NCBI GenBank assembly: GCA_020137815.1
Contig: CM035359.1
Location: forward strand, 8,029,267-8,093,266
Reading direction: 5' to 3'
Length of the DNA: 64,000 nucleotides
Source of the DNA: Hormiphora californensis
Taxonomy: Eukaryota > Animalia > Ctenophora
The position numbers were made by a program, and so were the translations under genes. A model generated the notes under the pieces. The model worked only from the letters and a program-made list of their open reading frames with translations, searched no databases and was not told the origin of the DNA. Below are positions 14,430 through 63,725 of the stretch, piece after piece. The stretch's first letter is position 1, and each line of letters begins with the position of its first letter.

Positions 14430-14724
14430 CTAGCGCACCCATTGGGTGCGCCTCAAGTTAGGGCTTTTTGATAACCCATCCGGCTTCGCCGGGTGGTTCT
14501 TTTCGCCCATTTCAACGTCAATAACACGGTTGCCATGGCAACTGAATTGTTGAAATTCATTTGAAAATATTAACAAACTTCCACTGGAAGTTCCAAAAGT
14601 GTGAATAACAGCTTTACAGCTTTGGTCATATGAAGTGTTTTATGAAGGAGCAGTCTGTCGCTTAGATACCGCCTAACGAACGACCACCACTTCGACGTCG
14701 TTCATCTCCAAATTATAATAGAGA
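14430..14724 (-). mobile_element. Non-autonomous Helitron
   Basis: On - strand 5'-TC start, hairpins CCCGGCGAAGCCGG and GCGCACCCAATGGGTGCGC, CTAG end; same family as 21471 onwards. Confidence 0.85.
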
Positions 14725-17775: not shown

Positions 17776-17779
17776 GTAT

Positions 17780-18604: not shown

Positions 18605-18835
18605 TATACACAAATTAGGTCGCTGAATCACGTCCCGTATCTCGTATCAACTCATTGAAATTCCATCTTAATCACCGATTAGGTCGGTAAACGGTGAACT
18701 GTGTTCCTTATCACATAAAGTGAAATTAGAACTGTTTCGCTGATTAGTTTATGAACGTAGATGTAGATTTTCACCCTGAGTTGAAATCTGTTTAAGAAGA
18801 CCAATTTATTTGCCAATATACAATATACATCCTTA

Positions 18836-19403: not shown

Positions 19404-21470
19404 TAACAACCCAGGTGACCTTTTAAAAAAACTTTTACTTTTATCTTGCCCCCTTGAGTGGAACTTATTCCCTAAAAACTGGAAATACAGCTGACCCCAT
19501 TTTTTTTTCCCTCAGACGAAAGACCATCTTGGGAAAAGGGCCTTACACGACAAATTTAATTTCGCTGTTTTGGGGTGTGGCCCCTTTCCTTCCTTTTTTT
19601 ACAAAACTGCCTTCTTCCACACATAGCGTTCATTTTACATTGTACTCAAATTGAGGTTGGAGTGGTGGTGTTGAGCAGTGAAACAAGATGGTGGACCTGC
19701 ACCACCGAATGAATTACAATGATCTTAAACTTACCCACAGTCGGCAGACGTTAAATAGGGGTAGGTTCATGAGGGAGGGGGGGGGGAACGGGACTCAAGG
19801 GAAGTATTAAATCTAATTGTGTTATTAATGAGTAAAATAACTGCTAGATGACAAACAGTATAAGAGTGCCTTTAAGCGTACTTTTTTTAAATAATTTAAA
19901 TGAGTTTTTTAAGGACGGAAGAACTCGCGCCAGAGGCTGTAAACTATTAGTAAGAGTAGTGGGTTATTCATTTTGTAGTTCCATGCGCAGATTCTGCAAA
20001 TGCCTTGCAAGCCAAGTATTTGAGTGAATATTAGACCCAGCTCGCGTTCCATGGCAATAAGGGAAAAAAGTGCACACAAACGCAACACACATCTGCAAAA
20101 ATTCTGTCCAACTCCATTTCCCACAATTGCTAGGCAAATAAGTTGAGAGACCTGGCCTTCGCACAAGCAAAAAGAGCCTCACCTCGGTTCTCTCCCGCCA
20201 TATGAAGAGCGATAGACTCTTCTATTCGCTCTCTCTCTCGCGTAGCTCGATGGCTCTCGCGATGCGCGCGCGCGCGAGAGAGGAGCGATCGCGCGAGAGA
20301 GCGAGAGAGCGACGCCGCTAGCGAGAGGCCGCGAGAGAAGACGGCCTCGACGAGCGAGAGAGAGCAGCCGAGCAGAGAGAGAGAGTGACGAGAGGAGAGA
20401 TGAGACGCAGAGATTCGAGAGATGCGAGAGAGAGAGGCGAGAGAGCGCCGCGCGAGGAGAGAGATGCGAGCAGAGCGAGGAGAGAGAGAGCGAGAGAGAG
20501 AGAAGATACGAGCGCGAGAGAGCGAGAGAGAAGAGGAGAGAGAAGAGAGAGAGCCGCGGCGAGATAGAGCGCTAGAGATGAGAGAGAGTATGAGCGAGTC
20601 TAGCGTATCTAGAGAGACGAGTAGATCAGCGAGAGCGAGGCGGAGCCGAGGCGCGAGCGCCGAGCGAGAGAGCGTAGGAAGAGAGAGACGCGTAGCAGCT
20701 AGAGGAGATCGTGAGCGAAGAGAGTGCGAGCGCTCTGCGCAGCGAGAGAGAGAGAGAGAGAGGATCGCGGAGCGAAGAGAGTAATAGAGAGAGAGAGAGC
20801 GCGCATAGAGAGATCGAGAGATTCCGAGAGAGATCGAGGGAGAGAAGAGCGAGCAGATACGAGAGAGAGCGATCTCGCGCTCGCGATCGAGAGATGAGAG
20901 ATAGAGAGAAGGAACGTACTAGACGTATATAGAGAGAGCGAGATACTATAGACAGAGAGAGAGATAGTAGAGTAGATAGTGACGAGACGAGGAGAGATAT
21001 CTGAGATCGGCTCTCTCGTATATCTAGCTAGAGCTAGAGTAGATAGCGATCGATATCTCTGCTCTATTATCTCTCTGCTACGTAGGATATCTATATGATA
21101 GGGGACGGGGAACATATAAATGGTAGCGGTTCTTCATGTCCGCATTCATTTTCAAATTTAAGTTCCATCCCAGTTTTGATCCCAATCCGTCCCAATTTGG
21201 CTTTAACTTTTTTTCTGTTTTCTTCAAATCTGGGGCAATATTATTTTTACGCTGTTCAATGGCTCAATGCCCGTATGAAACTGATGACCCTTCAGTGTGT
21301 AACCCCATATAAGTGTGGTTGCACCCCCTTTCGCCTGCAACTGACAGACTGGGCGACGTCTATTTTGCAGATATCTGCAAAACTGCAGATATTCGGCTAA
21401 TTCAGGAGCTTGGTTTTTCTGCGAATACTTCGCAAAAAAATCCAAAAGATTTTGCGAAGTATCTGCAGAA

Positions 21471-22102
21471 TCTCTATTATAATTTGGAGATGAACGTCGA
21501 AGTCGTTCGTTAGGCGGTATCTAAGCGACAGACTGCTCCTTCATAAAACACTCTACATGTGCCCACTTTTGGAACTTCCGGTGGAAGTTTGTTGATATTT
21601 TCGAATGACTTTTAACATGCCAGTCCCCATAGTTACCAATTCAGTTGCCATGGCAACCGTGTTATTGACGTTGAAAGGGCAGAAAAGAACCACCCGGCGA
21701 AGCTGGGTTGGTTATCAAAAAGCCCTTACTTGAGGCGCACCCAATGGGTGCGCTAGTATCTGAAATTTTGCAGAATATCGGTGCATGGAACTAGGGGGTT
21801 ATAATTTGGAGATGAACGTCGAAGTGGTCGTTCGTTAGGCGGTATCTAAGCGACAGACTGCTCCTTCATAAAACACTTCATATGACGAAAGCTGTAAAGC
21901 TGTTGCTCACACTTTTGGAACTTCCAGTGAAAGTTTGTTGATATTTTCGAATGACTTTTAACATACCAGTCTTCATGGTTACCGATATAGTTGCCATGGC
22001 AACCGTGTTATTGATGTTGAAAGGGGCGAAAAGATCCACCCGGCGAAGCCGGGTGGGTTATCAAAAAGCCCTTACTTGAGGCGCACCCAATGGGTGCGCT
22101 AG
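21471..22102 (+). mobile_element. Two non-autonomous Helitron copies (21471-21756, ~21799-22102)
   Basis: TCTCTATTATAATTTGGAGATG start; double 3' hairpin; CTAG|T end. Confidence 0.85.
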
Positions 22103-22268
22103 TTTATTTAATGTGCAATTTGTACGTTTATATAATATCTTTTCAAATCAAATCAAATCAAATCAAACTCTTATTTACATTAATTTACACATGAAATTAT
22201 TACAACAAAATATTAAAAAATGAACCCGTTGTTGCACATTTTGTTCAGTGGTGGCCTTAGTCGTGTAA

Positions 22269-22578
22269 GGGGAAACTCTAACTGAATGGCATCCCATTAA
22301 TGGGATCCCATCAACAGTAAAACTCTAACTGATAATGGACCACAGTGATGGTTCTTTCTCTGTATTCTCTCTGTATGCACGCCCGTGCCCGGGCAATGCC
22401 CGGGCACGGCGGGCATGCCCTATAGTTCTTTCTCTGTATTCTCTCTGTAGGCAGTACATAGATGTACTGCCTACAGAGAGAATACAGAGAAAGAACCATC
22501 ACTGTGGTCCATTATCCGTTAGAGTTTTACTGTTGATGGGATCCCATTAATGGGATGCCATTCAGTTAGAGTTTCCCC
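22269..22578. mobile_element. Palindromic MITE, PIF/Harbinger-like
   Basis: Same TIRs as 19113; TAA on both sides. Confidence 0.75.
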
Positions 22579-23157
22579 TAAATGAGCGTCTTCGATGTCA
22601 TGTCACACCCGCCAACACCATTGGTGTGAACATAGAAACCAAGAAATTAATTGAAAAAGTTTGAAATAATTTCGCAACTTGCTGATTCGACAAAACCATT
22701 ATAAACCCAACTTCGGGTTTACCCGTCTTCGTGTTATTAGCCGTAATGCGCCACCCTGCATCCCCACCCAGTTTTTTCCAGTGTGGCTGGTTTTCTTGAC
22801 ATTATATGATTTATTGCGGCTAGCAGTGTTTGATTGATTGATTGATTGATTGATTGACGAGGGGAAGCTTGCCTTTTGCAATCATAATAATAATTCTTGT
22901 TATTTCAGCATGGATGTAGTGGGAGTGGATACGATCATAACAACGGTGAATCATCAAGTAACCTAAATATTATATCAATGAATGAGATCTGTTCAGGATT
23001 AAATAGGGAGGAAAATTAGAAAAATATCTGGCGAGGGCCGGGCTCGAACCGACAACCTCTGGGTTTCGCGTCCATTGCTCTACCTATTGAGGTAGGTAGA
23101 GCAATGGACGCGAAACCCAGAGGTTGTCGGTTCGAGCCCGGCCCTCGCCACCAAAGA

Positions 23158-23230
23158 GGCGGGGTAGCTCAATAGGTAGAGCAATGGACGCGAAACCCAG
23201 AGGTTGTCGGTTCGAGCCCGGCCCTCGCCA
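23158..23230 (+). pseudogene. tRNA-like sequence of the 332-bp repeat family
   Basis: Identical 73-nt cloverleaf to 47191-47263; preceded by an inverted partial copy (23029-23091) and a direct partial copy (23095-23150); duplicate at about 33581-33655. Confidence 0.75.
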
Positions 23231-23291
23231 GATTAGTTTTCATGTTCTAGGTCCAATCAGAACGTCGTGACAAACTGTCATAAAGATATAA

Positions 23292-25823
23292 TCTCTATTA
23301 TAATTTGGAGATGTCGCGTGATGGTCGTTCGTTCAGCGGTATCTAAGCGACAGTCTGCTCCTTCATAAAACACTTCAATGTGCCCAAAGCTGTAAAGCTG
23401 TTATTCACACTTTCTGAAGTTCCAGTGGAGGTTTATTAATATTTCGAATGACTTTCAACAAGCCAGTCCCCATAGTTACCAATTCAGTTGCCATGGCAAG
23501 GGGCGAAATGAACCACCCGGCGAAGCCGGGTGGGTTATCAAAAAGCCCTTACTTGAGGCGCACCCAATGGGTGCGCTAGTCTATATTATAATTTGGAGAT
23601 GAACGTCGAAGTGATTGCCGTTCGTTCAGCGGTATCTAAGCGACAGTGCTCCTTCATCAAAACACTTTATGTGCCCAAAGCTGTAAAGCTGTTGCTCAAA
23701 CTTTTTGAACTTCCAGTGGAAGTTTGTTAATACAGTCGGACCCCGATTTAGTGGCATCCTCGGGGGAAAAAAATCCTGCCACTAAATCGGGGTGCCACTA
23801 AATCGGGGAGGTCCATATTTGGCCCATAAAAACCTATTTTATGCCCAAAATGCTATACTAAGACTAAAAACACCTCTAACTGTTATATATGCAATATTCA
23901 TGTATTGATGACATGATAATTTCTAAATAGAAAACTTTAAAATAATTTTTTCAAAAAAAATGTGAAAAATTTTCTAAGTTATATACCCTGCTAACTTAAA
24001 TAATGCGCCAGTGGCGAGAAGTCCCACTAGCGCGCTCTCAGTAAACAGCCAGTCCAGCGGCAGATTATTTCCCACTGGCAGGTTATTTATTCTTAACTTC
24101 TAAGTAACATTCAAAGTGTGTGTAAATGATCAGTTCTTACTAAAATACAGAGGGAACACTATGTGCAACACTTACACACTACATTGGAGAGAAAGAAAGG
24201 ACACATTCCGTCAATTACTCTCTCTTTATCTCCCCTTTTGTCTCACTATCTCTTTCTCTGTGTTATTTGTGACATGCCCCTTATCAGGCTATTTCTTTCA
24301 CTCTCTTTCCTTAGCAACTGTTTAGTAACTGTTACCAAACAGTGTACACTCAATTGTGACGTGTTTTTAACTATTTCTCAGTTCTCTTTGTGTGTTTTGA
24401 TTAGTGTTCTCTCTCTTGTTGGTGTGTAATACTTGAAATAAACAACTAAAGCAGGGTATATAACCCATAAACTCTGACCACTGGCACGTTATAGGTTTAA
24501 ACCCCTCCGCCTCTCCCTCGGCTCCGCCTCGGGATCGTCGTCGTGATTTAAACCAGTTTATCCGCCAGCGGCGGATAAACTCCAGCTAACTTCTCCCAGC
24601 GGCGCGCTGGGAGAAAGTTATCTGAAATAACGCGCCAGTGGCCAGAGTTTATGCCTCATATACCAGCCCGTCCGATTTGTGTTTCGAATCAGTGCAGCTT
24701 ACTGGATGTCCTGTCTAATTAGCAGGTTCGAAACGGACCGATACGTGATACCATGCCGAATCGGGGCACCCTAAGCGGGTGAGGAAGTATCAAAATTTCA
24801 AAATAACTTTTTCTCTCAAAATTTATGGGGAGCACCGATCAAAGCATTGACAATCGTACTGTAAAATTTTGCAAAAAAAGTTTTAAAATTTTTTTAAAAG
24901 TATACCAGCCACGTCCGAATCGTGTTTCGAATCGGTGCATCTTATCGCATGTCCTGCTGCTAATTAGACGGTTCGGAACGTGATCCCCATCGAATCGAAA
25001 TCTTGACTCTTGGTGACCTTGTGATTCAATGGCCCCATGGGGATCACGTATCGGTTCGTTCCAAACCGTCTAATTAGCAGCAGGATATGCGATAAGATTC
25101 ACTGATTCGAAACACGATTTGGACGTGGCTGGTATTCCTTTGAAAAATTTTCAAAAACTTTCAAAAAAATTTCACAAATTAAAATTCAAAAAATTTTTGG
25201 GGGAAAAAAATCGTGCCACTAAATCGGGGTGCCACTAAATCGGGGGCCACTAAATCGGGGTCCGACTGTACTTTCGAATGACCTTTAACATGCCAGTCCC
25301 CATAGTTACCAATTCAGTTGCCATGGCAACCGTGTTTTTGACGTTGAAAGAGGCGAAAAGAACCACCCGGCGAAGCCGGTTGGGTTATCAAAATGCCCTT
25401 ACTTGAGGCGCACCCAATGGGTGCGCTAGTCTCTATTATAATTTGGAAATGTCGCGTCGAAGTTTTTTCATCCGATCGATATCAATAGGGTGTGTTTTCG
25501 AAAGCTCAGGATTAGCTTAGTCGATTAGAAAAAGAATTAATCTAATCCCATGTAGGATTTTTGAAAAAAATCGACATCAAAGATCAAAAAAACCACAAAT
25601 AAAAGACCGAGTACGAATGGGTGCTCCTTCATAAAAAAATTATGCGACCAAAGCTGTAAAGCTGTTGCTCACACTTTTGGAACAATTCAGTCCCCATAGT
25701 TACCACTTCAGTTGCCATGGCAACCGTGTTATTTCCGTTAAAAGTGGCAAAAACAACCACACGGCGAAGCCGTGTGGGTTATCAAAAAGCCTTTACTTGG
25801 GGCGCACCCAATGGGTGCGCTAG
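23292..25823 (+). mobile_element. Head-to-tail array of three Helitrons (23292-23579, 23580-25429, 25430-25823)
   Basis: CTAG|TC junctions at 23579/23580 and 25429/25430; second unit interrupted by the MITE at 23733. Duplicate array at 33718-34713. Confidence 0.85.
23733..25268. mobile_element. pogo/Tc1-like MITE with a nested insertion (about 23977-24660)
   Basis: TIR CAGTCGGACCCCGATTTAG; TA TSD confirmed by the empty site gtttgttaa-TA-ctttcg at about 34160; shorter family member at 50031-50881. Confidence 0.9.
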
Positions 25824-25990: not shown

Positions 25991-26090
25991 NNNNNNNNNN
26001 NNNNNNNNNNNNNNNNNNNNNNNNNNNNNNNNNNNNNNNNNNNNNNNNNNNNNNNNNNNNNNNNNNNNNNNNNNNNNNNNNNNNNNNNNN
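25991..26090. other. Assembly gap (100 N)
   Basis: Run of n characters. Confidence 1.
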
Positions 26091-31912: not shown

Positions 31913-34853
31913 TAACATATCAAATGTGTAGGTTGATTGTCCGTTCTTTTAAAAATTTAAGTTCCACCCCGTTTTGACCCCAACCCGCCCCAATTTGGCT
32001 TAACTTTTTTTGTTTTTTAAATCTGGGGCAAATTTTTTTTACGCTGTTCAATGGCTCAAGCCCGTTGAAAATGAGCCCCTTCGTGTGCCCCCATAAAAGG
32101 GGGTTTGCCCCCCCTTTTCCCCTGAAAATGACGACGGGGACGTATTTGCAGATATCTGAAAAAATGAGATTTCGGCTAATTCGGGAGTTTGGGGTTTTTT
32201 CTGGGGAATACTTGCAAAAAAACCCAAAAGATTTGCGAAGTATCGGGAAAATCGAAATTTTGCAGAAACGGTGCAGGAACTGGGGGTTTATAATTTGGAG
32301 ATGAACGGAAGTGGTCGTTCGTTAGGCGGTATTAAGCACCAGATGTCCTTTCATAAACACTTCATATACAAAGTGTAAAGCTTTTGTCCATTTTTGGAAC
32401 TCCAGGAAAAGTTTGTTGAATTTTCGAATGACTTTAACATACCGTCTCGGGTTTACCGATTATTTTGCCAGGCAACCGTGTTATTGTGTTAAAGGGGCAA
32501 AAAAGACCCCCGGCGAACCCGGGGGGTTATCAAAAAGCCCTTCTTGAGGCGCCCCCCAATGGGTGCGCTAGTTTATTTAATGTGAAATTTTGATTTTAAA
32601 AATTTTTTTTTCAAACAAATAAATCAAATAAAAAACTTTTATTTACTTTAATTTAACATAAAATTATTACAAAAAAATATTAAAAAAGAACCGTTTTTTG
32701 CACTTTGTTCAGTGGTGGTTTTGTCGGAAAGGGGAAACTCTAATGAATGGCATCCTTTAAGGGGATCCTCAACAAAAAAACTCTAAGATAATGGACCCGT
32801 GATGGTTCTTTCTTGTTTTCTCTGAGCACCCGGCCCGGGGAATGCCCGGGCACGGCGGGAGGCCTTAGTCTTTTCTGTATCTCTTGAGGAGGAATGATGT
32901 ATGCCACAGAGAGAAAGAGAAAGAACCATCACGTGGTTTCCATTATGTTAGGTTTTTTGGAGGGATCCCATTAATGGGATGCCATTCAGTTAGAGTTTCC
33001 CCTAAATGAGCGTCTTCGATGTCATGTCACACCCGCCAACACCATTGGTGTGAACATAGAAACCAAGAAATTAATTGAAAAAGTTTGAAATAATTTCGCA
33101 ACTTGCTGATTCGACAAAACCATTATAAACCCAACTTCGGGTTACCCGTCTTCGTGTTATTAGCCGTAATGCGCCACCCTGCATCCCCACCCAGTTTTTT
33201 CCAGTGTGGCTGGTTTTCTTGACATTATATGATTTATTGCGGCTAGCAGTGTTTGATTGATTGATTGATTGATTGATTGACGAGGGAAGCTTGCCTTTTG
33301 CAATCATAATAATAATTCTTGTTATTTCAGCATGGATGTAGTGGGAGTGGATACGATCATAACAACGGTGAATCATCAAGTAACCTAAATATTATATCAA
33401 TGAATGAGATCTGTTCAGGATTAAATAGGGAGGAAAATTAGAAAAATATCTGGCGAGGGCCGGGCTCGAACCGACAACCTCTGGGTTTCGCGTCCATTGA
33501 CTCTACCTATTGAGGTAGGTAGAGCAATGGACGCGAAACCCAGAGGTTGTCGGTTCGAGCCCGGCCCTCGCCACCAAAGAGGCGGGGGTAGCTCAATAGG
33601 TAGAGCAATGGACGCGAAACCCAGAGGTTGTCGGTTCGAGCCCGGCCCCTCGCCAGATTAGTTTTCATGTTCTAGGTCCAATCAGAACGTCGTGGACAAA
33701 CTGTCATAAAGATATAATCTCTATTATAATTTGGAGATGTCCGCGTGATGGTCGTTCGTTCAGCGGTATCTAAGGCGGACAGTCTGCTCCTTCATAACAC
33801 ACTTCAATGTGCCCAAAGCTGTAAAGCTGTTATTCACACTTTCTGAAGTTCCAGTGGAGGTTTATTAATATTTCGAATGACTTTCAACAAGCCAGTCCCC
33901 ATAGTTACCAATTCAGTTGCCATGGCAAGGGCGAAATAAACCACCCGGCGAAGCCGGGTGGGTTATCAAAAAAGCCCTTACTTGAGGCGCACCCAATGGG
34001 TGCGCTAGTCTATATTATAATTTGGAGATGAACGTCGAAGTGATTGCCGTTCGTTCAGCGGTATCTAAGCGACAGTGCTCCTTCATCAAAACACTTTATG
34101 TGCCCAAAGCTGTAAAGCTGTTGCTCAAACTTTTTGAACTTCCAGTGGAAGTTTGTTAATACTTTCGAATGACCTTTAACATGCCAGTCCCCATAGTTAC
34201 CAATTCAGTTGCCATGGCAACCGTGTTTTTGACGTTGAAAGAGGCGAAAAGAACCACCCGGCGAAGCCGGTTGGGTTATCAAAATGCCCTTACTTGAGGC
34301 GCACCCAATGGGTGCGCTAGTCTCTATTATAATTTGGAAATGTCGCGTCGAAGTTTTTTCATCCGATCGATATCAATAGGGTGTGTTTTCGAAAGCTCAG
34401 GATTAGCTTAGTCGATTAGAAAAAGAATTAATCTAATCCCATGTAGGATTTTTGAAAAAAATCGACATCAAAGATCAAAAAACCACAAATAAAAGACCGA
34501 GTACGAATGGGTGCTCCTTCATAAAAAAATTATGCGACCAAAGCTGTAAAGCTGTTGCTCACACTTTTGGAACAATTCAGTCCCCATAGTTACCACTTCA
34601 GTTGCCATGGCAACCGTGTTATTTCCGTTAAAAGTGGCAAAAACAACCACACGGCGAAGCCGTGTGGGTTATCAAAAAGCCTTTACTTGGGGCGCACCCA
34701 ATGGGTGCGCTAGTAATAAGACATTTTTAAAACCAACCAAATTTCTTTGAGCTCAGTTTACACCCTTAAGACGGTTTCTGATTGAAAAACGGAGACCACA
34801 CTTATGAAAGATAATCGTCTAAACTTTCAGAAAATTATTGACAAAATTGAGAA
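31913..34853 (+). repeat. Direct duplicate (probable second haplotype) of 21110-25975
   Basis: Same order of Helitrons, Harbinger MITE and tRNA-like repeat; lacks the 23733 MITE; error-rich until about 32960. Confidence 0.85.
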
Positions 34854-37929: not shown

Positions 37930-40900
37930 GAATTCTAAATGCAAGCTGTACCATCCTTTTGGGTACAACAAGTTGAGAAGAGCTGCAGTCAAAGCTCGAA
38001 CAAACAAGCTGGCTAACTCGAAGGAAAAGACCCAGCCAAAAAACCAAACCTGCCCCACCACTACTCCAGCTCCCCTACAGGAAAAGGTAGAGGAGACTGG
38101 AAAGTTCGCCAGATACCAGGATTTTCTAAGGTTCGAGGAGATTCTAACTCGGTTGATGGGAAGAATGAACTCCATGGAGAAATCAGTGAACAGGTACAGG
38201 GGCTCCCGTGTCCTCCGTTAAAGCCGGCATGGCTCCCCCAAAGCCAAATGCCAGACTTCAGTTTCATGAGTCAGCCTGCCTGGTGTTAAATGCTGGGGGT
38301 TTCGATCCTGGCGCCCGCAGCAATACAAGGTGAAAGAAAGATGTACTGAACCACGAGATTCTCTCACTTAGGGAGAAGGGAGTATGTGTACCTTTTATAG
38401 GTATCACTGAGTCGTGTTTGAGGGACTTTCACCTTGATGCACAAATCCAGCTGCCGGGCTACCAGTGTATTCGAGCTGATAGGGTAGGTAAACAGGGAGG
38501 ATGTGCTCTTCTTTATATTGATGAAGGTGTTCCGATTAAATGCTCAGCTAGCTACGACGATGGCACATGTGAAGGCGGTTTTCTGCCGTCTCCCATCTTG
38601 TTCCATGAGCATTGCTGTAGTCTACCGACCCCCTCACCCCTGATGCCCCCTATGATAGCTTTTCCGGAGTTCTCCAGTTCTTGGGTTCTAACCTAGATAA
38701 GGATCCAGATACGGAGTTCTTCCTAATGGGAGACTTCAACTTTCCGACAATTGATTGGGATCACCTGTCTATTGGAGGCAGGGCAGCAGAAAACACCCGG
38801 TCAGCTCGACATCTCCTTGAGTTATCGGAGAAGTATTTTCTGCAACAGGTTGTCGACTCGAGAGTGATTTCCAGAGCTTCCCAGCTGCGTTCACCCATGA
38901 AGTTCTTTCTGCTTGTCAAGAGGTTTTCCGGGAAGTTAAAGCTCCTAAAGGGAAACCGTCAACCGAACTGCTACAAGAAGCTACAGAGAAAGAAGTCCAA
39001 ACTCCGAGTACGTATAAACGCCCTGAGAAGTAATGACCAAGTGGCAGCAGCAGAAGAAGTAGAGGAGCATCTCTCTCAGGTCTGCCTAGAGATCAAAGAC
39101 CTGGTACTAACCAGGAGAGATGATCGACAGCAACGGGCAGTACTGAATAAGTTGAGAACATGAATCATGCTGCCAGACCAAACCCAAAGAACCGAGACAA
39201 ACCCCGCAAAACCAACCTCCAAACCAAACAACCAGGAAACCTCCACCAAACCTCCAAACCTCCACCAACCTCCAAACCTCCAACAACCTCCAACCCTCCA
39301 CCAAACCGCCAAACCTCCACCAACCTCCAAACCTCCAAACCTAAACGCAACCTAACCACACCTAACGCCGCCAAACACCAAGAGATCCGGAACAGCGGAA
39401 AGATCGAGACCCTCCGTCTGGCGTCCACTAAGATGGTAAATGTGGACACTCGCCAGAAACCGAGACTCAGATCGAACTCATCAGCCGTAAACCTGACACC
39501 GTTTCGGGGCTTTAATTCGGTACGGGTACACAAGGTACTAAGTCAGGCGCCCCGGCAATCTCGATGATCTGAGACCACCGTTCGATCTATACCCAGTTGC
39601 CCGGAATGAATGTGTCGACTGGGGTCCCTCACTGCCTCCCCCTTTGACAGGTTTATGAAGTCGGACCCGTGGTACTTCTACTCTTTTGCAAAATCCCTTG
39701 CAAGGGAAAGTCAACCATCCCTCTTATCACTAAGGACGATGGTTCCATGGCAACTGATCCCAAAGAGATCGCAGACGCTTTTCAAAGTGAATTCTGCAGG
39801 GTATCCAGTGATCCGAACAACCCTGAGACCGAGGAGCCAACCTTCGATAAGCCTGAGCTATCGTGGTTGGATGAGGGTATTGAGCTCCACGATGAAGATA
39901 TCATCAAGGTGTGTAAGGACCTGGAGTCTTCTTCCTCACCCGGACCGGATGGAATCCCCTCCCGGATCCTGAAAGAGTGTGCGGAGGTACTGGTGAAACT
40001 CTGGGACTCATGTGGCGTGACTCACTTCGACTAAGGAAAGTCCCGGAATACTACAAAATGGGTCACGTTGTACCCCTCTACAAAAAGGGGGACAAGTCGA
40101 GCACGAAAAACTACAGACCTGTCACACTGACGAGCCATGTAATAAAACTGTTCGAGCGGATCGTCAGGGCCCATATAATGGTTGATCGTTTTGAAAAAAA
40201 TGGACTATTTTCAAAAAAACAACATGGCTTCCGCAAAGGACGATCGTGTCTGACCCAGCTTCTTGGCCACATAGACTGGGTGATGAAAGCCTTATGTGGC
40301 GAAAAAGATGTAGACGCTATCTACCTCGACGGCTCGACTATAGTCGAGCTTTTGACCGCGTGGACATTGGTTTACTGCTCGTTAAACTGAGGCGGTATGG
40401 AGTCCACTCTCAGATTGTTGAATGGATGGAATCTTTTCTGACCGACAGGAAATAGAAAGTGGTGCTTGATGGGTCACACTCTGAGATCGCTACCATTATA
40501 ATAAGCGGTGTACCCCAGGGAATTGTGTTAGCACCGTTCCTCTTCTTAATATTTAACAATGATCTTGAGGGAGTAGTTAAAGATGCTATACTCAGTTTCT
40601 TTGCTGACGACTCGAGAGCCGCGATGGAGATATCTGCTGAGACTGACATGGTGAAGCTACAGCAGGATCTGGATCGAGTGATGCTGTGGTCTAGGACAAA
40701 CAATATGGTCCTAAATGAAGACAAATATGTTCTTCTGACCCACAAACACAACCCGAATTCCCACATGAACCTCTTTCCTATGACGGGCATTGAGTACACC
40801 ACTAGTGGCGGTGCTAAGATCTCACCATCGGATCATGTAAGAGATCTGGGTATCATAGTCTCCAGTGACTTATCTTGGAGACCGCACCTCGTAAATTTGG

Positions 40901-42410
40901 CCAAACGAGCAAGATGCATGGCACAATGTAGTCAGGACCACTATTGGTGCGCGGTCGTGCCCACGGAAGGAGTGCTTGGATCATCTTGAAACCGGTTTTA
41001 AGTTAACTAATGCATATCCAAAAGTGTCTGTAGCCATTTGGGTGATGTTCTGACAATCCAATCACGAGTTATGACCGAAAAACAGTCAAAAAAGACGTTT
41101 TAAAGTGACAAAAAGGAGGATCTGAACACAGCCCTTATATGAAGGGCTGGGGCTTTGAAACTTCTTGTGTGGACAGAGAATCGTCCAAATTTGCAGTGTC
41201 AACTTTCAGATAGTTTCTATCTTTTGTAGTTATCTAATTAGAGTCGTTTAAACATGTGAGAAGTTGCTAAAGGGGCCTATAATACTGCTTGTGAAGTGAT
41301 CACTTGACGAGATTTGCCCAATTAGAGAGCGGATTAAAGCATACAAGCGGTGAGAGCAAGCAATATGAGATGGAAGTAGTACCTAATGACCCTGTTTTGC
41401 AGGGTCATAAAGATCGTCTCACATGTTTGAATGGCTCTAATTAGATAACTACAAAAGATAGAAACTATCTGAAAGTTGACACTGCAAATTTGGACGATTC
41501 TCTGTCCACACAAGAAGTTTCAAAGCCCCAGCCCTTCATATAAGGGCTGTGTTCAGATCCTCCTTTTCGTCACTTTAAAACGTCTTTTTTGACTGTTTTT
41601 CGGTCATAACTCGTGATTGGATTGTCAGAACATCACCCAAATGGCTATAGACACTTTTGGGTATGCATTAGTGAGCTTAAAACCGGTTTCAAGATGATCC
41701 AAGCACTCCTTCCGTGGGCACGACCGCGCACCAATAGTGGTCCTGACTAATGGGTGTTCGGGGTGTTCTCCAGTAGGGAACCAGAGCTGATGATCACTGT
41801 TTATATATCACTGGTCAGAAGTTTGATGGAGTACTGCTCTCCATTGTGGAGCCCGCAAACCGTCGGAGACATCCAACTGCTAGAGTCTGTTCAGCGGGGT
41901 TTCACAGCGAAAATCTCGGGTATGAAGGACCTTGACTACTGGCAGCGCCTAAAAGCCCTTGACTTGATGTCTTTGCAAAGACGACGGGATAGGTATGCAG
42001 TGCTAATTATGCACAAGACATATCGGGAGTTGATACCAAACGAAACCGGTGTTAGCTTCAACCGTACATCCCGCCACGGTGTCAAAGCAGAGCTACCTGA
42101 CCTGTCACGGGTGAAGAGCAAAAGAACTAGCACACTGTACAGCTCTTCTTTCGGTTCCATCGGCCCTAGACTGTGGAACTGTCTCCCGGACGATCTGAGG
42201 GAGATTGAGGACCCTGATTTATTTAAATATAAGTTGGACCTCCTTCTCCGTGATATCCCAGACCGTCCCCCTACACCTGGATATCAAGCGCCAAACAGAA
42301 ACTCTTTGTCTGACTGGTGTGTTGGAGCCAGTTTCAATAAACGGTGGTCCGAGTTCCTGGGATGACCTGACGTATCATGGCTAACAAATCAAAAGTATCA
42401 AAAGTAAGTA
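37930..42410 (+). mobile_element. Decayed CR1-group LINE (ORF1 remnant, APE, RT, C-terminus, short-repeat tail)
   Basis: APE (GITES, RADR..GG, GDFN); RT (SPGPDGI, NYRPVTLTS, QHGFRKGRSCLTQL, GVPQG, FADD, VRDLG); C-terminus (LMEYCSPLWSP, YWQRL..L.LMSLQRRR); many frameshifts; tail tcaaaagtatcaaaagtaagta. Confidence 0.92.
40929..41749. mobile_element. Academ-like foldback element inserted in the LINE RT
   Basis: TAGTC...GACTA termini; 3-bp TSD ATG; removing it restores AQWVFG in the LINE ORF2. Confidence 0.88.
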
Positions 42411-43457: not shown

Positions 43458-43819
43458 AGTTGGCAGTTAAGTCGTGTTGAGACTCTACGTCCGGTTGGGA
43501 GTGGTCCCTAATTAGTAGGTATAACGCCCACTGCTCATTTTTTGGAGAAATAACACCCGCGCGGTAGCGGGCTGATATGACTGCATCCGAAGTGATAAAT
43601 ATCATAACCCCCGCTCCAAAAGTGCAATTTATTACACGTAAGAATTCACCCAAAAAGGTGTGAAAATGTTGTGGCTTGCGCGTGAGTAATACTGAGAATA
43701 CTCCGCAAGCAATCGGTGTGATATATATAACGATCGATTTTGTGATATCGTTGTTCTTTCTTCTACTTACTCAAACTCCTGTGTATCACTTTGACCAGTT
43801 CCAGACACACGCATCAGAA

Positions 43820-43832
43820 TGGCGACGAGGAT
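43820..43832 (+). promoter_or_regulatory. Primer-binding site (tRNA-Ser-type)
   Basis: TGGCGACGAGGAT begins 3 nt after the 5' LTR and is complementary to a tRNA 3' end ...ATCCTCGTCGCCA. Confidence 0.75.
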
Positions 43833-44538
43833 CAATGTGTATTTGTGATCTTTCTCGGACAGTTTATTCAGTATGCAGCAGGTTTTGTTGTGAGCCCACT
43901 AGGTGTGTTCAGCCTGTGTGCAGGAGAAGATCGGCGGAGAGGTGTGGTGTTAATGGACTACGTTGTGATCGTGTAGTGCCAGGTGAGAGGAACTGTGTTG
44001 TGTTCTCAGGAGACGATCGGCGGAGAGGTGAGTTGGACCCGGATTCTCTACGTGTGTTTACTGGAATTCGTGACGGTCGGAGATGTGTCTGTCGATGTAA
44101 GACACGCGGTGTGTGTAACGACTCTCAGTTCGTGGGAGAGTGGCCTCTGGGAGGTATTGGCACCGTTCACCCCCTGTTGTTGTTGTGGAGGGTGATCTCC
44201 AGATCACGGGTGTTTTTATTCGGGCAACTTCTATGTGAGGAGGAAGGATTGCCGTGTCCCTGTTTGCTACGTTGGATTGCAGAGGGAGTCACAGTTAGCA
44301 GTGTTTGTGTACCGACCAGCTTTGTTGTGGACGTTGGTTCGGTGTTCCTCAGTGATGTGGAGAGCGAGGAACAACCTGAGTTATGTAACCTCCTACGTTG
44401 TGGAGTGGCGGAGAACTCAGTTAGTAATTGTACATGTGGTCCCGGTGTTGTAGTGGGATTCACAAGTTGCAGCAGCCCTGAGGATGTGAGAGGGTGTGCT
44501 GGGAACTCTCAGAAGAGAGGTGAAATGTGTCTAGAGGA

Positions 44539-44800
44539 ACCTTGTGCTGAGGAAGGTTGGATTATCCTATGTTACCTTGTGCTGAGAAAGGTTGGAGATC
44601 CTGTGGTACCTTGTGCTGAGAAAGGTTGGAGATCCTGTGGTACCTTGTGCTGAGAAAGGTTGGAGATCCTGTGGTACCTTGTGCTGAGAAAGGTTGGAGA
44701 ACCTGTGGTTCCTTGTGCTGAGAAAGATTGGAGATCCTGTGGTACCTTGTGCTGAGGAGGTTGGAGATCCTGTGGTACCTTGTGCTGGGAAAGGTTGGAT
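44539..44800 (+). repeat. 34-bp minisatellite inside the LTR element
   Basis: ACCTTGTGCTGAGAAAGGTTGGAGATCCTGTGGT, about 7.5 units with no spacers. Confidence 0.9.
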
Positions 44801-45765
44801 ATGTAGGTACTGCAGCCTTCATTGTGTGTGTGGGAAGGACTGTATGTTTTGTGGACATTGTGTTGAGGTAGCACCTTGTGTTATATGTACCTCGTGTGAA
44901 CAATATCAAAGAACTTAGTCACCATACCATATGGACTTGGAGAGAGATGTGACTAGAGTTGTAGTGCGAGTGAGATTGAGATACTCGAGGATAGTAAATC
45001 TCTATGAATGTAGAATTGTGTTGCGAGAGAGATTGAGATATTCCATGATAGCAGATCTCTGAGAGTGAATGATTGTGTTGCGAGAGAGAGATCAGAGCGA
45101 GAACCTCAGAGATAGAGATGTTTGAAAACAGTAGATCTCTGTGACTGTAGAATTGTGTTACGAGAGAGAGATCAGAGCGAGAATCTCAGAGATGGAGATG
45201 TTTGAGGATATTAGATATCTGTGTTAAGTTTTAGCTTTTCATTTGTACCCCTTTTTATGATATAATAGAGCCTGTGTGTGGTGTCTAGTTATTCAGTGTG
45301 TGGAGAGAAAGGTGTTAGGTGGTCTGTCAGACAAGTTTTGGCAAGTTTGGATCGTGGCCATGTCTGGGCAGTGAGAGAGCTAGTTGACTGTCAGTGTCAG
45401 GGCAGGTCGTAGCAGGCCTAGCCTTTGTGTGAGAGAGCGATCAGTTTGACTGTCGGCCCGACAGTGTCGGGTCTCTGTGTGAGAGAGCTGTGTGCGCGGT
45501 GTGTGTGTGTGAGTGCGCGAAGTTTGAGCTCTATGGAAAGTTGTAGTTGTTAGCATTTAGCGGCGTGTTCGGTTCCCGCCACGCGCGGCCCACTGTTAGT
45601 TCATGGAGTCGGAGTTGTTCTTGGAGACGGTGTGCGAGAGACCGGAGACGTCATGTTAGTCTGTATTTTGAGGGATGTTTGGAGCCTCAGAAGGAGTGAG
45701 AAGGGTGTTGTGGCTTGCGCGTGAGTAATACTGAGAATACTCCGCAAGCAATCGGTGTGATATAT

Positions 45766-46028
45766 AAAGTCCAATTTTTAATAAAGCGAACCGCAAAAAA
45801 TTCCCACGCACCGTGGGAAAGTTTTTTGTCGGTTGTTTCGATCATATCTCTGGCTCCTGATAAGATAAAGACTTGATCCTGGTTGCGTTGGAAAGAGAAA
45901 AATGTTATCTTTCCAATGCGACCAATGACAAGTCTCTATCTTATCAGGAACCGGATTTAGCACGCGCAAATAGAATTATATTATTATTAATGCGCGTGAG
46001 CGGTTCGCATTATTAAAAATCGCACTTT
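45766..46028. mobile_element. Small MITE in the 3' LTR (TA site)
   Basis: aaagtccaatttttaataaagcgaaccgc / gcggttcgcattattaaaaatcgcacttt; absent from the 5' LTR; partial relative at 63500-63613. Confidence 0.8.
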
Positions 46029-46081
46029 ATAACGATCGATTTTGTGATATCGTTGTTCTTTCTTCTACTTACTCAAACTCC

Positions 46082-47455
46082 AATGATGAGATCTTGTTCA
46101 GGATTAAATAGGGAGGAAAAATTAGAAAAATATCTGGCGAGGGCCGGGCTCGAACCGACAACCTCTGGGTTTCGCGTCCATTGCTCTACCTATTGAGCTA
46201 CCCCGCCGACAATTTAACTACATTTCCTCGCTCTATATCCTGAACATTGCCCTTAGCTATTGCAGCATCACATATCGGAACAAGATTTTTAATATCTTCT
46301 CTGGCTGCTAATCTCACTTTCTCTCTCACACATACACGCCCTACTGTACAACAGTGAAGGGGAAACATACAGCGGGCAGATCACGGTTGTGGAAGAATGG
46401 ATTGGTTAAATATCAATGATGAGATCTTGTTCAGGATTAAATAGGGAGGAAAATTAGAAAAATATCTGGCGAGGGCCGGGCTCGAACCGACAACCTCTGG
46501 GTTTCGCGTCCATTGCTCTACCTATTGAGCTACCCCGCCGACAATTTAACTACATTTCCTCGCTCTATATCCTGAACATTGCCCTTAGCTATTGCAGCAT
46601 CACATATCGGAACAAGATTTTTAATATCTTCTCTGGCTGCTAATCTCACTTTCTCTCTCACACATACACGCCCTACTGTACAACAGTGAAGGGGAAACAT
46701 ACAGCGGGCAGATCACGGTTGTGGAAGAATGGATTGGTTAAATATCAATGATGAGATCTTGTTCAGGATTAAATAGGGAGGAAAATTAGAAAAATATCTG
46801 GCGAGGGCCGGGCTCGAACCGACAACCTCTGGGTTTCGCGTCCATTGCTCTACCTATTGAGCTACCCCGCCGACAACTTAACTACAAAAAAAATATCTGG
46901 CGAGGGCCGGGCTCGAACCCGGCCCTCGCCAGATATTTTTCTAATTTTCCTCCCTATTTAATCCTGAACAAGATCTCATCATTGATATTTAACCAATCCA
47001 TTCTTCCACAACCGTGATCTGCCCGCTGTATGTTTCCCCTTCACTGTTGTACAGTAGGGCGTGTATGTGTGAGAGAGAAAGTGAGATTAGCAGCCAGAGA
47101 AGATATTAAAAATCTTGTTCCGATATGTGATGCTGCAATAGCTAAGGGCAATGTTCAGGATATAGAGCGAGGAAATGTAGTTAAATTGTCGGCGGGGTAG
47201 CTCAATAGGTAGAGCAATGGACGCGAAACCCAGAGGTTGTCGGTTCGAGCCCGGCCCTCGCCAGATATTTTTCTAATTTTCCTCCCTATTTAATCCTGAA
47301 CAAGATCTCATCATTGATATTTAACCAATCCATTCTTCCACAACCGTGATCTGCCCGCTGTATGTTTCCCCTTCACTGTTGTACAGTAGGGCGTGTATGT
47401 GTGAGAGAGAAAGTGAGATTAGCAGCCAGAGAAGATATTAAAAATCTTGTTCCGA
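46082..47455. mobile_element. Multimeric tRNA-like retro-insertion: 332-333-bp units, tandem plus inverted
   Basis: About 2.4 units with tRNA on - (46135-46207, 46467-46539, 46799-46871), then about 1.6 units inverted; 12-bp TSD TACTCAAACTCC (46070-46081, 47456-47467); empty site in the 5' LTR. Confidence 0.85.
47191..47263 (+). pseudogene. tRNA-like Pol III unit (non-canonical anticodon arm)
   Basis: Acceptor GGCGGGG/CCTCGCC, D stem GCTC/GAGC, T arm GTCGG TTCGAGC CCGGC; anticodon stem has 2 mismatches and loop CGCGAAA lacks U33; TATA at about -30 and a T-run just downstream. Confidence 0.75.
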
Positions 47456-47529
47456 TACTCAAACTCCTGTGTATCACTTTGACCAGTTCCAGACACACGC
47501 ATCAGAAAACTCTTTCTTTTGTGTGTGTG

Positions 47530-49279: not shown

Positions 49280-49625
49280 TAGACGGTAGGCGGACTCTAG
49301 TGCTAACGGACTTTTTATCTAAATTCATGGCGGACTCTATATCTAAAAGCGGATTCTTTATCTACAGTTATACTTTGAAAAAAAAATTAGATAAAGAGTC
49401 CGCCCAATGTAGATGTTTTAGAAATAGAGTCCGCCCTGTGTAGACTTTTAGACATAGAGTCCCCTGGTACTGAACGAACGACTTCGACGTTCATCTCCAA
49501 ATTATAATAGAGATAGAGTCCGCCTTTTGTAGACTTTTTAGATAAAGAGTCCGCCCTGTGCCACAAGAGAGCTCTATCGGCGTGGAACCGAGAGCAGATA
49601 AAACAACAAATAGAAACACGTTGGT

Positions 49626-49666
49626 TTACAAACAAATGTTTCGATCTTGCGATCTCATCAGTGTAA
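49626..49666 (-). ncRNA. Minimal type I hammerhead ribozyme (inverted pLTR of PLE 2)
   Basis: - strand: ttaca-CTGATGA-gatc gcaa gatc-GAAA-c attt g-TT-tgtaa; perfect stems I and II with a GNRA loop. Confidence 0.9.
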
Positions 49667-49671
49667 TAAAA

Positions 49672-50897
49672 ACAATTAAAGATATATACACAATGGTATT
49701 TACAATGGCAATTCACAATTTTATATTATTAAAAGCATAGGTAAAATCCTCAACATTTTAATCTTTCATTGTCCTGCTGTTTCTTGACCCACGTATACAT
49801 AAAAGGCTCAATTTTAAAATGATAAAGGAGAGTCTCACTCTTCAAAAGCTAATAACGTCATTAAAATTCTCATTCTTCTTATTACAAATCTTGTTACATA
49901 AAAGTTTTAAAAAAGTCTTGCATTCAGGTCCATAGCCTCCTGTTATTGAAAAAATTAAAGGGGTAAAAGTGCCTCTTTCGACATTTAAAATTCTCTCATT
50001 ATATTTACACCTTTTCTTAGATTCAAGATACAGTCGGACCCCGATTTAGGGACACCCTCGGGGGAAAGGGTCTTGTCCACTAAATCGGGGTGTCCTCTAA
50101 ATCGGGGTGAGCCATATTTGACCCAAAAAAACTATTTTATTGCCTAAAATGCTATATTATTAAGACTAAAGACACCTCTAACTGTTATATGCAATATTCA
50201 TGTATTGATGACATGATCATTTCTGATTAGAAAAAGAAAAATATAAAATAATTCTTTTTCAAAAAAAGTGGAAAATTTTATACCAGCCCGTCCAGTTTGT
50301 ATTATATTTCGAATCTGTGCAAAGTATACTGGATATCCTGTCTAATTAGCGGGTTCAAAACGAACCGATACGTGATACCATACCGAATCGGGGCACCCTA
50401 AGCGGGTGAGGAAGTATAAAAATTTCAGAATAACTTTTTCTCTCAAAATTTATGGGGAGCACCGATCAAAGCATTGACAATCGTACTGTAAAATTTTGCA
50501 AAAAAGTTATAAATTTTTTAAAGGTATACCAGCCACGTCCGAATCGTGTTTCGAATCGGTGCATCTTATCGCATGTCCTGCTGCTAATTAGACGGAACGA
50601 ATCGAAACGTGATCCCCATCGAATCGAAATTTTGACGCTTGGACCTTGGTGAACTTGTGATTCAATGGGCACCATGGGGATCACGTGTCGGTGCGTTCCG
50701 AACCGTCTAATTAGCAGAAGGACATGCGATAAGATGCACCGATTCGAAACACGATTCGGTGATGGCTGGAATCTTTTTGAAAATTTTCACACAAAAAAAT
50801 CAAAAATTTTTGGGGGAAAAAAATCCTGTCCCTAAATCGGGGTGTCCCTAAATCGGGGGTCCCTAAATCGGGGTCCGACTGTATGTAAAAACCTTCT
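49672..50897 (-). mobile_element. 5'-truncated RLE-type (CRE-like) non-LTR retrotransposon, interrupted by a MITE
   Basis: - strand translation across the MITE: EGFTYLESKKRCKYNERILNVERGTFTPLIFSITGGYGPECKTFLKLLCNKIC...RVRLSFIILKLSLLCIRGSR (one stop), the C-terminal restriction-like endonuclease pattern; 14-bp TSD TCAGTGTAATAAAA (49658-49671, 50898-50911). Confidence 0.8.
50031..50881. mobile_element. pogo/Tc1-like MITE (same family as 23733)
   Basis: TA-CAGTCGGACCCCGATTTAG...CTAAATCGGGGTCCGACTG-TA. Confidence 0.9.
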
Positions 50898-50980
50898 TCA
50901 GTGTAATAAAATAGGGAAACAAAATTATCCGAGTAAGTATGCTCCTTCATAAACTCCTTCACAATAAGAACTTTTTCTTG

Positions 50981-51521
50981 TGTATGAACAACCTAGAGAG
51001 GATAATAAAAGGGCACAACAGAAAACTACTCCACAAGCATGTACGAGCGGAAGTCAAAGACACACGGACGTGTAACTGCCTGGATAGAGAATCCTGCCCA
51101 TTGAAGGGTAAGTGTCTTCAACAGGGAGTAGTATATCTGGCAAAGCTGAAGTCTGATGCAGATGAATATCACTACGTCGGTATGACAGCTGCAACCTTCA
51201 AAAAACGATACTACGGTCACACTTCATCATTCCGGCATGAGGAACACGGCAAGGACACCAAGCTGTCCGAAAAGATCTGGGATCTGAAAGTTTCACGAAC
51301 TTCCTTCACGTTTCAGTGAAACGTGAAGGAAGTTCGTGGGATATCGAGTGGGAGATCCTGAGGAGAGGAAGACCTTACACTGTGGGCCAGTCAACATTAC
51401 ATGCGACCTCTGTACATCGGAAAAGCTAGAGATTGTACGAAAATCGAGGGACCAGCGGCTGTTAAATTCTAGAACAGAGATCCTCTCAAAATGCCGACAC
51501 AAGAAAAAGTTCTTACTGTGA
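50981..51521 (+). pseudogene. 5'-truncated Penelope-like element 2 (GIY-YIG fragment)
   Basis: CMNNL...CNC..RESCPL.GKCL..GVVY...YVGM...FKKRYYGH...CDLC..EK...LLNSRTEILSKCRHKKK; preceded by an inverted copy of its own 3' end (50898-50983 and 49559-49671), a typical PLE structure. Confidence 0.9.
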
Positions 51522-51573
51522 AGGAGTTTATGAAGGAGCATACTTACTCGGATAATTTTGTTTTTCTATGTTA

Positions 51574-51614
51574 TTACACTGATGAGATCGCAAGAACGAA
51601 ACATTTGTTTGTAA
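51574..51614 (+). ncRNA. Minimal hammerhead ribozyme in the PLE 2 pLTR
   Basis: ttaca-CTGATGA-gatc gcaa gaac-GAAA-cattt g-TT-tgtaa; one stem II mismatch relative to the 49626 copy. Confidence 0.85.
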
Positions 51615-51974
51615 ACCAACGTGTTTCTATTTGTTGTGATATAGAGTTTAGACTTATTTGGACTCTTTATTTAAATCTAAATTTAGATATAGAGTCCACT
51701 GTAGACTTCTTTTTTCCTTGCTCCTATTACCTACCCCAAACCAAAGTCCAGAATGTCCTGCTAAATATCATGGTATGTTGAAACTGGTTTATAATTATAA
51801 AATACCGATCCAATCATTATTATAATGAGATCTGATCAGAATTTAATCCTGATAATTTAACATTATGACCCTTCCCACCCGAATCTGCCCGCTTGTATGT
51901 TTTTTTCCCTTCACTGTTGTTACGTAGGGTGGCGTGTTTGTTTGTGGAAAAGATGATGTGAGAATGCAGCGAGC

Positions 51975-52567
51975 CGAAGTGGGTGGGTGTTTTCATGGTG
52001 ACAATGGTGACAGATGTAAATGTGGCTCATCTTTGACCATTTAGGGTATGTTCCACCATCACCATTTTGATCACCATTTTCCCCATTGTTTCCATTTGTC
52101 TTGTCCACCATTTTTCTCCATTGTCACCATTTTTGACGAAATTGCGGATTTTGGCAGAATTTTCTTTAAAATTGTAATAAAATTTATTAATTGCCTAGAC
52201 CGCGACCTACTATTGGTTCATAAGTTGTTAACATGGCCGATTCCGGATCGCTATATTGTTTGGACGCTAAAACTTCCCCAAATGTCACGTAGATGTGTAC
52301 CTCCGTCGCACCAACACATCAACAGCGCATTTATCCACCTGTGCCCCTTAATTACATCCATGGACTTGAAACTTGGTAAAGTGTCCCCCCAGTTGTCCAT
52401 AACATCATATTATGTCCCGATAACATCAACATGATCATCCTGTAGACAAGCTCCAGAGAGAATGGTGAAAATGTGACTCACTCTAAATTTTGTTCATGTC
52501 ACACATCACCATTTGTCACCAAAGTCACCACCATTTGTCACCATTTGTCACCATGATTACCCCCCCG
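51975..52567. mobile_element. TIR element with gtcacca subterminal repeats, inserted in a degenerate 332-bp-family unit
   Basis: gggtg..tttcatggtgacaatggtgac / tgtcaccatgattaccccc; flanks 51810-51970 and 52570-52600 resemble 47270-47455. Confidence 0.55.
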
Positions 52568-62600: not shown

Positions 62601-63725
62601 CGTTCCGTAGGCAGTATGTCATGATGCCTTGATCTATAACTGTTTAATTCTCGTTTAATTCCCCTTATTTTAACTGTTTTAGCGTCATACTCCTTTTGGG
62701 TACGGCCATTGCCGCACCCCCTATACGTCCTCTCCAACGAGCCTAGAAAACTTCAAGCCTAGAAGACTTCAGGGGGCTAATTTACATTTTAATTGCATGT
62801 TTTACTTCTAATTACATTCCAATTACTTTCTGTTTTCAGGATAACTTTCTCCCATCCAATATGTTTCTTCTATTCTCTTCAAGGAAGCATGAAAACGACC
62901 TCAAGACCTTTCTAACGAGCCCTAAAAACCTTTCTTACGACTTCATTTTTAATTGCATGTAATTACTTCAAATTACATTCCATATTGTCCCCCGTGTGTG
63001 GTGGTGTGGAGGATCCTTTTACTCAAAGTCAGATCCATTCCAATGATGTTTTTGGTATACAAATTCGAAAACACGTTATATCGGGGCCACTAACGGTACT
63101 TTCAAGGAACGAAAAGGGAATCGTATACAAAATCTGACCTTCAAAATCGAACTCTGATGAACTCAAATATTCTCATCTCTCTTTAGGTCTCTCTCCCCAC
63201 TATCTAACCAACACTCTCTCACTCTTACTCTCTCTCTTAGCTCAAATACTATCTCTCTCCAAATCTCTCCAACTCTCAGAATCAAAATCTCTCCACTCTC
63301 AATATCTCACTCTGTCTCTGAACTCCTCCTCGCGCGACTCTCAGACGACAGTTAATTCATGTTGCCACACCAACCGGTAGGAGCTACATATGCTATAACA
63401 CTGGTGTGTATTTGTATATCGCGCCCGCGCAGGGCGCGATATGGCCGCATATCGGCCCCTTGCGGAGCAAGGGGGCGATATGCAATATAATGCAATATAA
63501 TGTGACCAATGACAAGTCTCTATCTTATCAGGAACCAGATTAAGCACGCGCAAATGGAATTATGTTTTTATTAATGCGCGCCCCCCGTTCACATTATTAA
63601 AAATTGGACTTTAATCCCCTTTCAAGTTTTTCAACTCTATTTTCAACTATTGAACATCATCAAATTTCACAGGTTCAAACAACAAAATAATTACAGAGAG
63701 AGAGAGAGAGAGGAGAGAAGAGAGA

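Follow-up and report, generated by a model that had tools for sequence, protein, structure and literature searches.

Which machinery copied the 332-bp non-coding unit that stands in this DNA as a multimer of two opposed arms, headed by a tRNA-like domain? Short interspersed elements (SINEs) are taught as passengers of LINEs, and the known short passengers proposed for Penelope-like elements (PLE) are defined by a hammerhead or derived from a PLE. The unit analysed here behaves as a non-autonomous PLE would if its head were SINE-like and, by definition, is no retrozyme. The preferred reading, with a probability of about 0.6, is that of a non-autonomous, tRNA-headed PLE passenger copied from a linear multimeric RNA. 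The window denotes the whole stretch of 64,000 nucleotides that was analysed. Unit positions are counted over 332 nt from tRNA base 1, which corresponds to window position 47191 on the plus strand.

Structure of the insertion

The insertion and its host element comprise the following features.

43667 to 47504, plus strand: host LTR element, young, with identical 150-bp LTRs and a 5-bp target site duplication (TSD)
46070 to 46081, plus strand: left TSD copy, 12 bp, its final base common to TSD and unit
46081 to 46886, minus strand: left arm, 2.43 units, with the outer (RNA 3') end at position 126 (site A) and the inner end at -15 from tRNA base 1
46887 to 46919, minus strand: junction piece of 33 nt, with two additional bases and unit positions 82 to 52 (from the T-run end into the T arm)
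46920 to 47457, plus strand: right arm, 1.62 units, starting at position 62 (T arm) and reaching its outer (RNA 3') end at site B, position 267
47456 to 47467, plus strand: right TSD copy, 12 bp, its first two bases common to TSD and unit

The insertion block is composed of 2.43 and 1.62 near-identical 332-bp units, with the arms placed tail-to-tail inside the 12-bp TSD. A tandem repeat with a period of 332 and 2.4 copies was detected at 46081-46886. The left arm matches the unit at 804 of 806 nt, with one mismatch and one extra base, and the right arm is identical to it (538/538). The unit contains no ORF longer than 61 codons. The preliminary description had proposed about 2.4 tandem and about 1.6 inverted units, inserted in a single event with a 12-bp TSD and an empty site in the sister LTR. 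Both proposals are borne out by the arm lengths, by the two TSD copies and by the empty site present in the 5' LTR of the host (43667-43816). Since the host LTRs match at 150/150 aligned bases, the insertion is very young. Three pieces come in addition to those described earlier: the 33-nt third piece at the inversion point, which pairs with the right-arm start as a 23-bp foldback, a 36-bp inverted repeat, and another insertion, which contains a CCA junction.

The left arm opens with 0.43 unit and then requires the other 191 positions. Consequently, by the logic of the sequence, the template held no fewer than 1.43 units at insertion, and the RNA was multimeric or circular.

The 3' LTR that carries the block also has another insertion, of about 260 bp (45767-46027) and related to 63499-63613, and two insertions give it the appearance of a hot spot. 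Elsewhere in the window a repeat of about 300 bp, which ends in GC hairpins and CTAG and is presumably Helitron-like, is present in tandem and dispersed form (14411-14725, 21469-22107, 23289-23733 and 33715-34354). An 830-bp element with 333-bp inverted arms occurs in two 99% identical copies (40926-41751 and 17776-18609), one of which splits the RT region of a LINE (38334-42410). A scaffold gap of 100 N is placed at 25991-26090.

Abundance of the unit

The unit was detected in 20 of the 24 listed runs, from two organisms and marine metagenomes. It is carried by 1739, 670 and 304 contigs in three DNA runs, with hundreds of variants per run and all 28 unit bins covered; one of these runs may come from the source of the window, and runs X17-X24 were excluded. 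The 332-bp family is abundant and young. None of the contigs listed spans even one unit, and the contigs are consistent with multimers outside the window. Joints of unit end to unit start (best 12 of 24 rows) only reflect continuity across the arbitrary cut at 179/180 and were excluded as proof of multimers. RNA is represented by three contigs from two metatranscriptomes, possibly with DNA carry-over. Contig depth was left out of copy-number and end mapping, and further sequence searches for additional copies returned one match in total.

The tRNA-like domain

The tRNA-like domain is present four times in the block, and in the right arm the inverted repeat lies around it as follows.

46135 to 46207, minus strand: tRNA-like domain copy 1, left arm
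46467 to 46539, minus strand: tRNA-like domain copy 2, left arm
46799 to 46871, minus strand: tRNA-like domain copy 3, left arm
47191 to 47263, plus strand: tRNA-like domain copy 4, with A and B boxes, which defines unit position 1
47152 to 47186, plus strand: inverted repeat, upstream arm (positions 294-328), containing the TATA-like hexamer at -30
47267 to 47302, plus strand: inverted repeat, downstream arm (positions 77-112), containing the T5 run

The 73-nt domain scores 52.3 bits against the Rfam tRNA model, for a family threshold of 29. A single TATA-like hexamer occurs in the unit, at -30, and the tRNA is followed by a T5 run at 47268-47272. The cloverleaf with A and B boxes, upstream TATA and downstream T-run reported earlier is thus present, and so is the opposition between intact and decayed arms: the acceptor (7/7), D (4/4) and T (5/5) stems are fully paired, whereas the anticodon stem retains 3 of 5 pairs. 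The domain has a G at position 33, a serine anticodon and a 5-nt variable loop. A functional tRNA-Ser is expected to have a paired anticodon stem, U33 and a long variable arm. The domain has the cloverleaf score of such a tRNA and lacks these three features, and on its sequence it is unlikely to decode. All six tRNA calls within the window are the 332-bp element, and such units get annotated as tRNA-Ser genes, which calls for caution. In the variant copies of runs X1 and X13 the anticodon arm (47210-47240) differs, whereas the D and T arms match; these are loose-end consensus letters only. A bacterial tRNA parent was considered and rejected: the 5' pattern has no exact match in genome contigs, and the best phage matches, tRNA-Met at 79-80%, are too weak to point to a parent.

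The inverted repeat around the tRNA (36 bp, 78%) prolongs the acceptor stem, and none of 2000 shuffles attained its score. The predicted fold of the whole unit is compact (z -4.0). On the other hand, the pairing probability of the T stem in ViennaRNA is 0.02, and an alternative fold without this stem is favoured by 3.8 kcal/mol. This counts against the preferred reading.

Search for a ribozyme

A motif scan detected no hammerhead or HDV-like motif in the unit on either strand. The hammerhead scan recovered one of the two control hammerheads of the window, and a looser regular expression recovered both; the HDV-like descriptor, which gave no match in the unit, was run without a positive control. 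The Rfam search of the unit to E=10 returned the tRNA and three weak, chance-level matches only, a weak negative given that the gathering score missed the two real minimal hammerheads of the window. With both strands clear and the controls of the window recovered, the earlier statement that no hammerhead is visible in the unit stands. The unit was also compared on both strands with a PLE hammerhead or 3' UTR from which it might have decayed, and the similarity was not significant.

Outer ends recur at two internal sites

Further copies that bear on the ends are listed below.

22972 to 23233, no strand assigned: second insertion, composed of a minus arm of positions 130 to 11, a D-arm foldback, tRNA 16-73, CCA, four spacer bases and tRNA 1-76
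23151 to 23157, plus strand: CCA and the four spacer bases, which separate tRNA base 73 from the following tRNA base 1
33394 to 33658, no strand assigned: duplicate of the second insertion, with the same CCA junction, not independent
51800 to 51979, no strand assigned: old relative of the non-tRNA part, about 70% identical, whose short inverted arm stops close to site A

All three independent copies available in full sequence have an outer end at site A: at 126 in the left arm, at 130 in the second insertion and at 125 in the marine metagenome contig L001. Three random ends would lie this close with a simulated P of 0.00087. The inverted-arm end of the old relative adds a weak instance of site A. 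Site B is the stop of the right arm at 267, and four loose-end rows (14 contigs from two samples, with mixed flanks) end at 264-268. Three loose-end rows with 24 contigs run into site A. Among the best 18 of 307 rows, seven of the eight right-hand rows with at least three contigs end at site B (4) or run into site A (3). The rows used, the best 18 of 307 and the best 19 of 150, were picked by support and yield no enrichment figure.

No poly(A) or simple-repeat tail is present at any observed end. Both RNA 3' ends face outward, the arrangement predicted for cDNA priming at each of the target nicks. The ends had previously been described as starting and stopping at arbitrary points of the unit; this has to be abandoned, both being recurrent (125-130 and 264-268).

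Inner junctions and the CCA junction

Inside the block, the left cDNA path halts at -15, two bases are added, and copying resumes at position 82, at the T-run end, and continues to 52, followed by the T-arm foldback. The junction at the T-run would fit a jump onto a Pol III transcript with a U-tail, and it would also fit a jump across the flanking stem, in the predicted fold of which position 318 lies opposite 85-88. The RNA sense equals the tRNA sense in the CCA piece as well as in the T-run piece. All three further inversion joints listed among the contigs pair positions 206-213 with -10, 59 or 63, that is, with the leader or the T arm. Among the best 19 of 150 loose-end rows, four have breaks at -2 to +3; antisense unit sequence adjoins the break in three of these, and one of the four, from an RNA run, lies exactly at tRNA base 1. 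The remaining breakpoints are at -15, -10, 11, 16, 52, 59, 62, 63 and 206-213. The stops at base 1 and at -15 favour a linear RNA that begins at the tRNA head. The circular template of the preliminary description finds no support: the 3' ends keep to two sites, and a number of 5' breakpoints are located at tRNA base 1 or close to it, a pattern that speaks for linear RNAs with a SINE-like head. The recurrent inner breakpoint of the inverted arms (47064-47071, positions 206-213) is some 55-60 nt upstream of site B, where a long hairpin is predicted to have its 3' base, and may be a stall of the reverse transcriptase.

In the second insertion the copy stops exactly at base 73, continues with CCA and starts again exactly at base 1. 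For this reason a matured template can be read from it, and within the unit base 73 precedes letters other than CCA. The junction suggests that a matured tRNA mimic served as template for this one insertion event. The earlier proposal that the tRNA fold is processed gains here one direct piece of support, from a single insertion. No TSD was found at the second insertion, and evidence from one insertion without a TSD counts against the preferred reading. Neither the CCA junction nor the inversion junction of the main block is among the contig joints listed, an absence that proves nothing. The second insertion lies within a 2-kb duplicate (21762-23733 and 32254-34162; 92% identity, many single-base indels) that may be an assembly or haplotype duplicate.

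A probable Penelope-like mechanism

The protein of an Anolis PLE cuts and extends both strands from fixed internal starts and does not need hammerhead cleavage in vitro, as given in the available part of PMC11167929. Tandem and inverted copies are PLE hallmarks, according to the available part of PMC8557442. Fixed internal, tail-less ends at both nicks fit PLE priming, and PLE-type mobilisation is likely. The locus has a tandem array with an adjacent inverted copy and 3' ends that are fixed, internal and free of a homopolymer tail, and a GIY-YIG PLE exists in the genome as a broken fragment. Since the 3' ends are fixed internal sites, the case for a PLE is stronger than the one argued before. 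What survives of the earlier idea of a PLE-driven, non-autonomous, ribozyme-less unit is the helper and a template longer than a unit, with the fixed ends in its favour, and what finds no support is the permuted picture and the circular template. Candidate machinery is found 3.4 kb from the block.

50895 to 51637, plus strand: broken PLE 3' fragment with a GIY-YIG end, an inverted piece and a minimal hammerhead

The identity of this fragment as a PLE, with GIY-YIG at the C-terminus, is taken from motifs read by eye. It has 11 longer homologues, and the two examined both have RT motifs ahead of the endonuclease; in Pfam, P0001, P0002 and P0006 are unnamed and P0010 has one weak unrelated match. 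A second hammerhead copy, at 49603-49669 on the minus strand, has the same 3' end as that of the fragment. No significant similarity between the unit and the PLE 3' end in the window was detected (best 21/500 shuffles in 6 tests, one PLE family). The lack of a matching PLE partner counts against the preferred reading, and the fragment is only a candidate for the machinery in this genome.

In the mechanism proposed, the tRNA domain would let Pol III-type transcription begin at base 1 or immediately ahead of it, and a part of the transcripts would run past the T-run into further tandem units; read-through by Pol II is an alternative. The enzyme, presumably of a PLE, would then nick both strands 12 bp apart and prime a cDNA at each nick, from the fixed internal RNA sites at positions 125-130 and 264-268 where the observed ends lie. 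Both cDNAs would stall in or before the tRNA domain and be joined into the tail-to-tail block, as the junctions suggest, and a stalled cDNA may sometimes jump to a free 3' end that adjoins the 5' end in the fold. Host enzymes would at least sometimes cut after base 73 and add CCA, judging from one junction, and the flanking 36-bp stem probably restrains such cutting in multimers. The tRNA would act mainly as promoter and RNA start, and a ribozyme or a circle would be unnecessary. A T5 run directly behind the tRNA should halt Pol III before site A. This run, kept in L001, counts against multimers made by Pol III.

A wider generalisation, rather unlikely, is that of a recurring animal class of Penelope-dependent elements in which a tRNA mimic replaces the hammerhead as promoter and as a processing site cut by the host. 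RNase P would set the start at base 1, which may yield unit-length circles, and the 36-bp stem would gate RNase Z so that multimers survive. If true, the maturation of a tRNA mimic would for the first time be documented as a fossil, in these junctions. A passenger that is headed by a tRNA, lacks a ribozyme and has two start sites that can be mapped would be a small natural substrate for PLE recognition, for the formation of tandem and inverted copies and for the relevance of the hammerhead.

Alternative explanations

Multimers could also come from circles: RNase P would cut each unit at base 1, the monomers would be ligated, and rolling reverse transcription would follow, with the tRNA fold replacing the retrozyme hammerhead. 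This is unlikely, even if it would account for scarless unit joins at 99.8-100% identity, for the compact fold, for the processing shown by the CCA junction and for an elbow and acceptor kept intact beside an anticodon arm that is broken and varies between runs; size and TSD also match those of retrozymes in the available part of PMC7229834. Evidence of circles is absent, linear ends follow from the cDNA stops at base 1 or close to it, and CCA addition amounts to a second cut, which would split the unit. RNase P leaves a 5' phosphate and a 3' OH. Such ends differ from the 5'-OH and cyclic-phosphate ends of retrozyme monomers (PMC7229834, same part). An ordinary LINE-driven tRNA SINE, quite improbable here, would have its head at base 1, where breakpoints at bases 1-3 are indeed seen, its inversion from LINE twin priming and its tandem copies from insertion or from DNA-level duplication as in SINE-derived satellites. 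The A and B boxes, the TSD and the LINE endonuclease and RT fragments in the window agree with this, and SINE-derived satellites and tailless tRNA retrocopies are known (available parts of PMC10702118 and PMC3747384). Nevertheless, the unit has no tail and no match to a LINE 3' end (one tested), both outer ends lie at fixed internal sites, more than one unit stood within a single TSD from the start, and 65 nt separate site B from the head. Nor does the block look like in-place growth from part of a SINE, the mark of SINE-derived satellites, as whole units, arranged as arms of opposite orientation, stand within a single TSD, the host LTR is young, and no fewer than 1.43 units were needed at insertion.

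The least probable account, to which very little weight is given, holds that a tandem array of tRNA genes or pseudogenes, or the pLTR of an autonomous PLE, was copied as a bystander, or that the block is partly an assembly artefact. The good tRNA score, the TATA-like box and the terminator are those of a real gene, no contig among those listed spans a unit, and the assembly has indel-rich duplicates. Against this account stand the anticodon stem with 3 of 5 pairs, G33, the serine anticodon combined with a 5-nt variable loop, the hundreds of variant contigs per DNA run, the exact TSD and the empty site, the lack of any ORF above 61 codons, and the loose-end rows listed, none of which continues into one common long sequence.

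Comparison with known elements

At the level of titles and abstract openings, in mostly non-subscription literature, no description of a tRNA-headed, ribozyme-less PLE passenger was found, and a prior description is possible. The Sm-alpha unit of Schistosoma is about 335 bp long, tandem and dispersed. The SINE-like repeats Sm-alpha and Sj-alpha resemble the present family as high-copy tRNA-derived sequences tied to hammerhead-type repeats, Sm-alpha combining a tRNA-derived part with a hammerhead (PMC2770079, available part). In contrast, the unit described here has no hammerhead, and it has full acceptor, D and T stems set in a long flanking stem, and the CCA junction.

Retrozymes are defined by a hammerhead and circles in the available parts of PMC7229834, PMC11722881 and PMC8969392. 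Metazoan non-LTR retrozymes share short tandem units, low GC, a TSD above 4 bp and PLEs as proposed helpers (PMC7229834, in part). The short non-coding tandem unit and the TSD of more than 4 bp are found here as well, whereas the type I hammerhead and circular RNA of metazoan retrozymes contrast with a unit that carries no ribozyme. The ribozyme-poor Chlamys PLEs have non-autonomous derivatives that form multimers, such as the ribozyme-less MRC1 of Chlamydomonas, and in PMC8557442 tRNA comes up once, for selenocysteine. These derivatives generally match their autonomous partner at the 3' end, in contrast to the present unit, for which no such match to the one PLE family of the window was detected.

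Likeness to tRNA-derived SINEs, SINE-derived satellites and tailless retropseudogenes lies in the tRNA head with A and B boxes, the TSD, the tandem derivatives and the tail-free retrocopies (available parts of PMC8969392, PMC10702118 and PMC3747384). Unlike tRNA-derived SINEs, the unit has no tail or LINE-derived end, it forms a multimer with an inversion in one TSD, and it has two fixed internal 3' ends. With the Poseidon PLE of Anolis (PAc) it shares priming on both strands and fixed internal starts, and hammerhead cleavage is dispensable in vitro for PAc (PMC11167929, in part). PAc is autonomous and its start sites bound a tail of 30-40 bp, whereas the unit described here has two sites about 140 nt apart.
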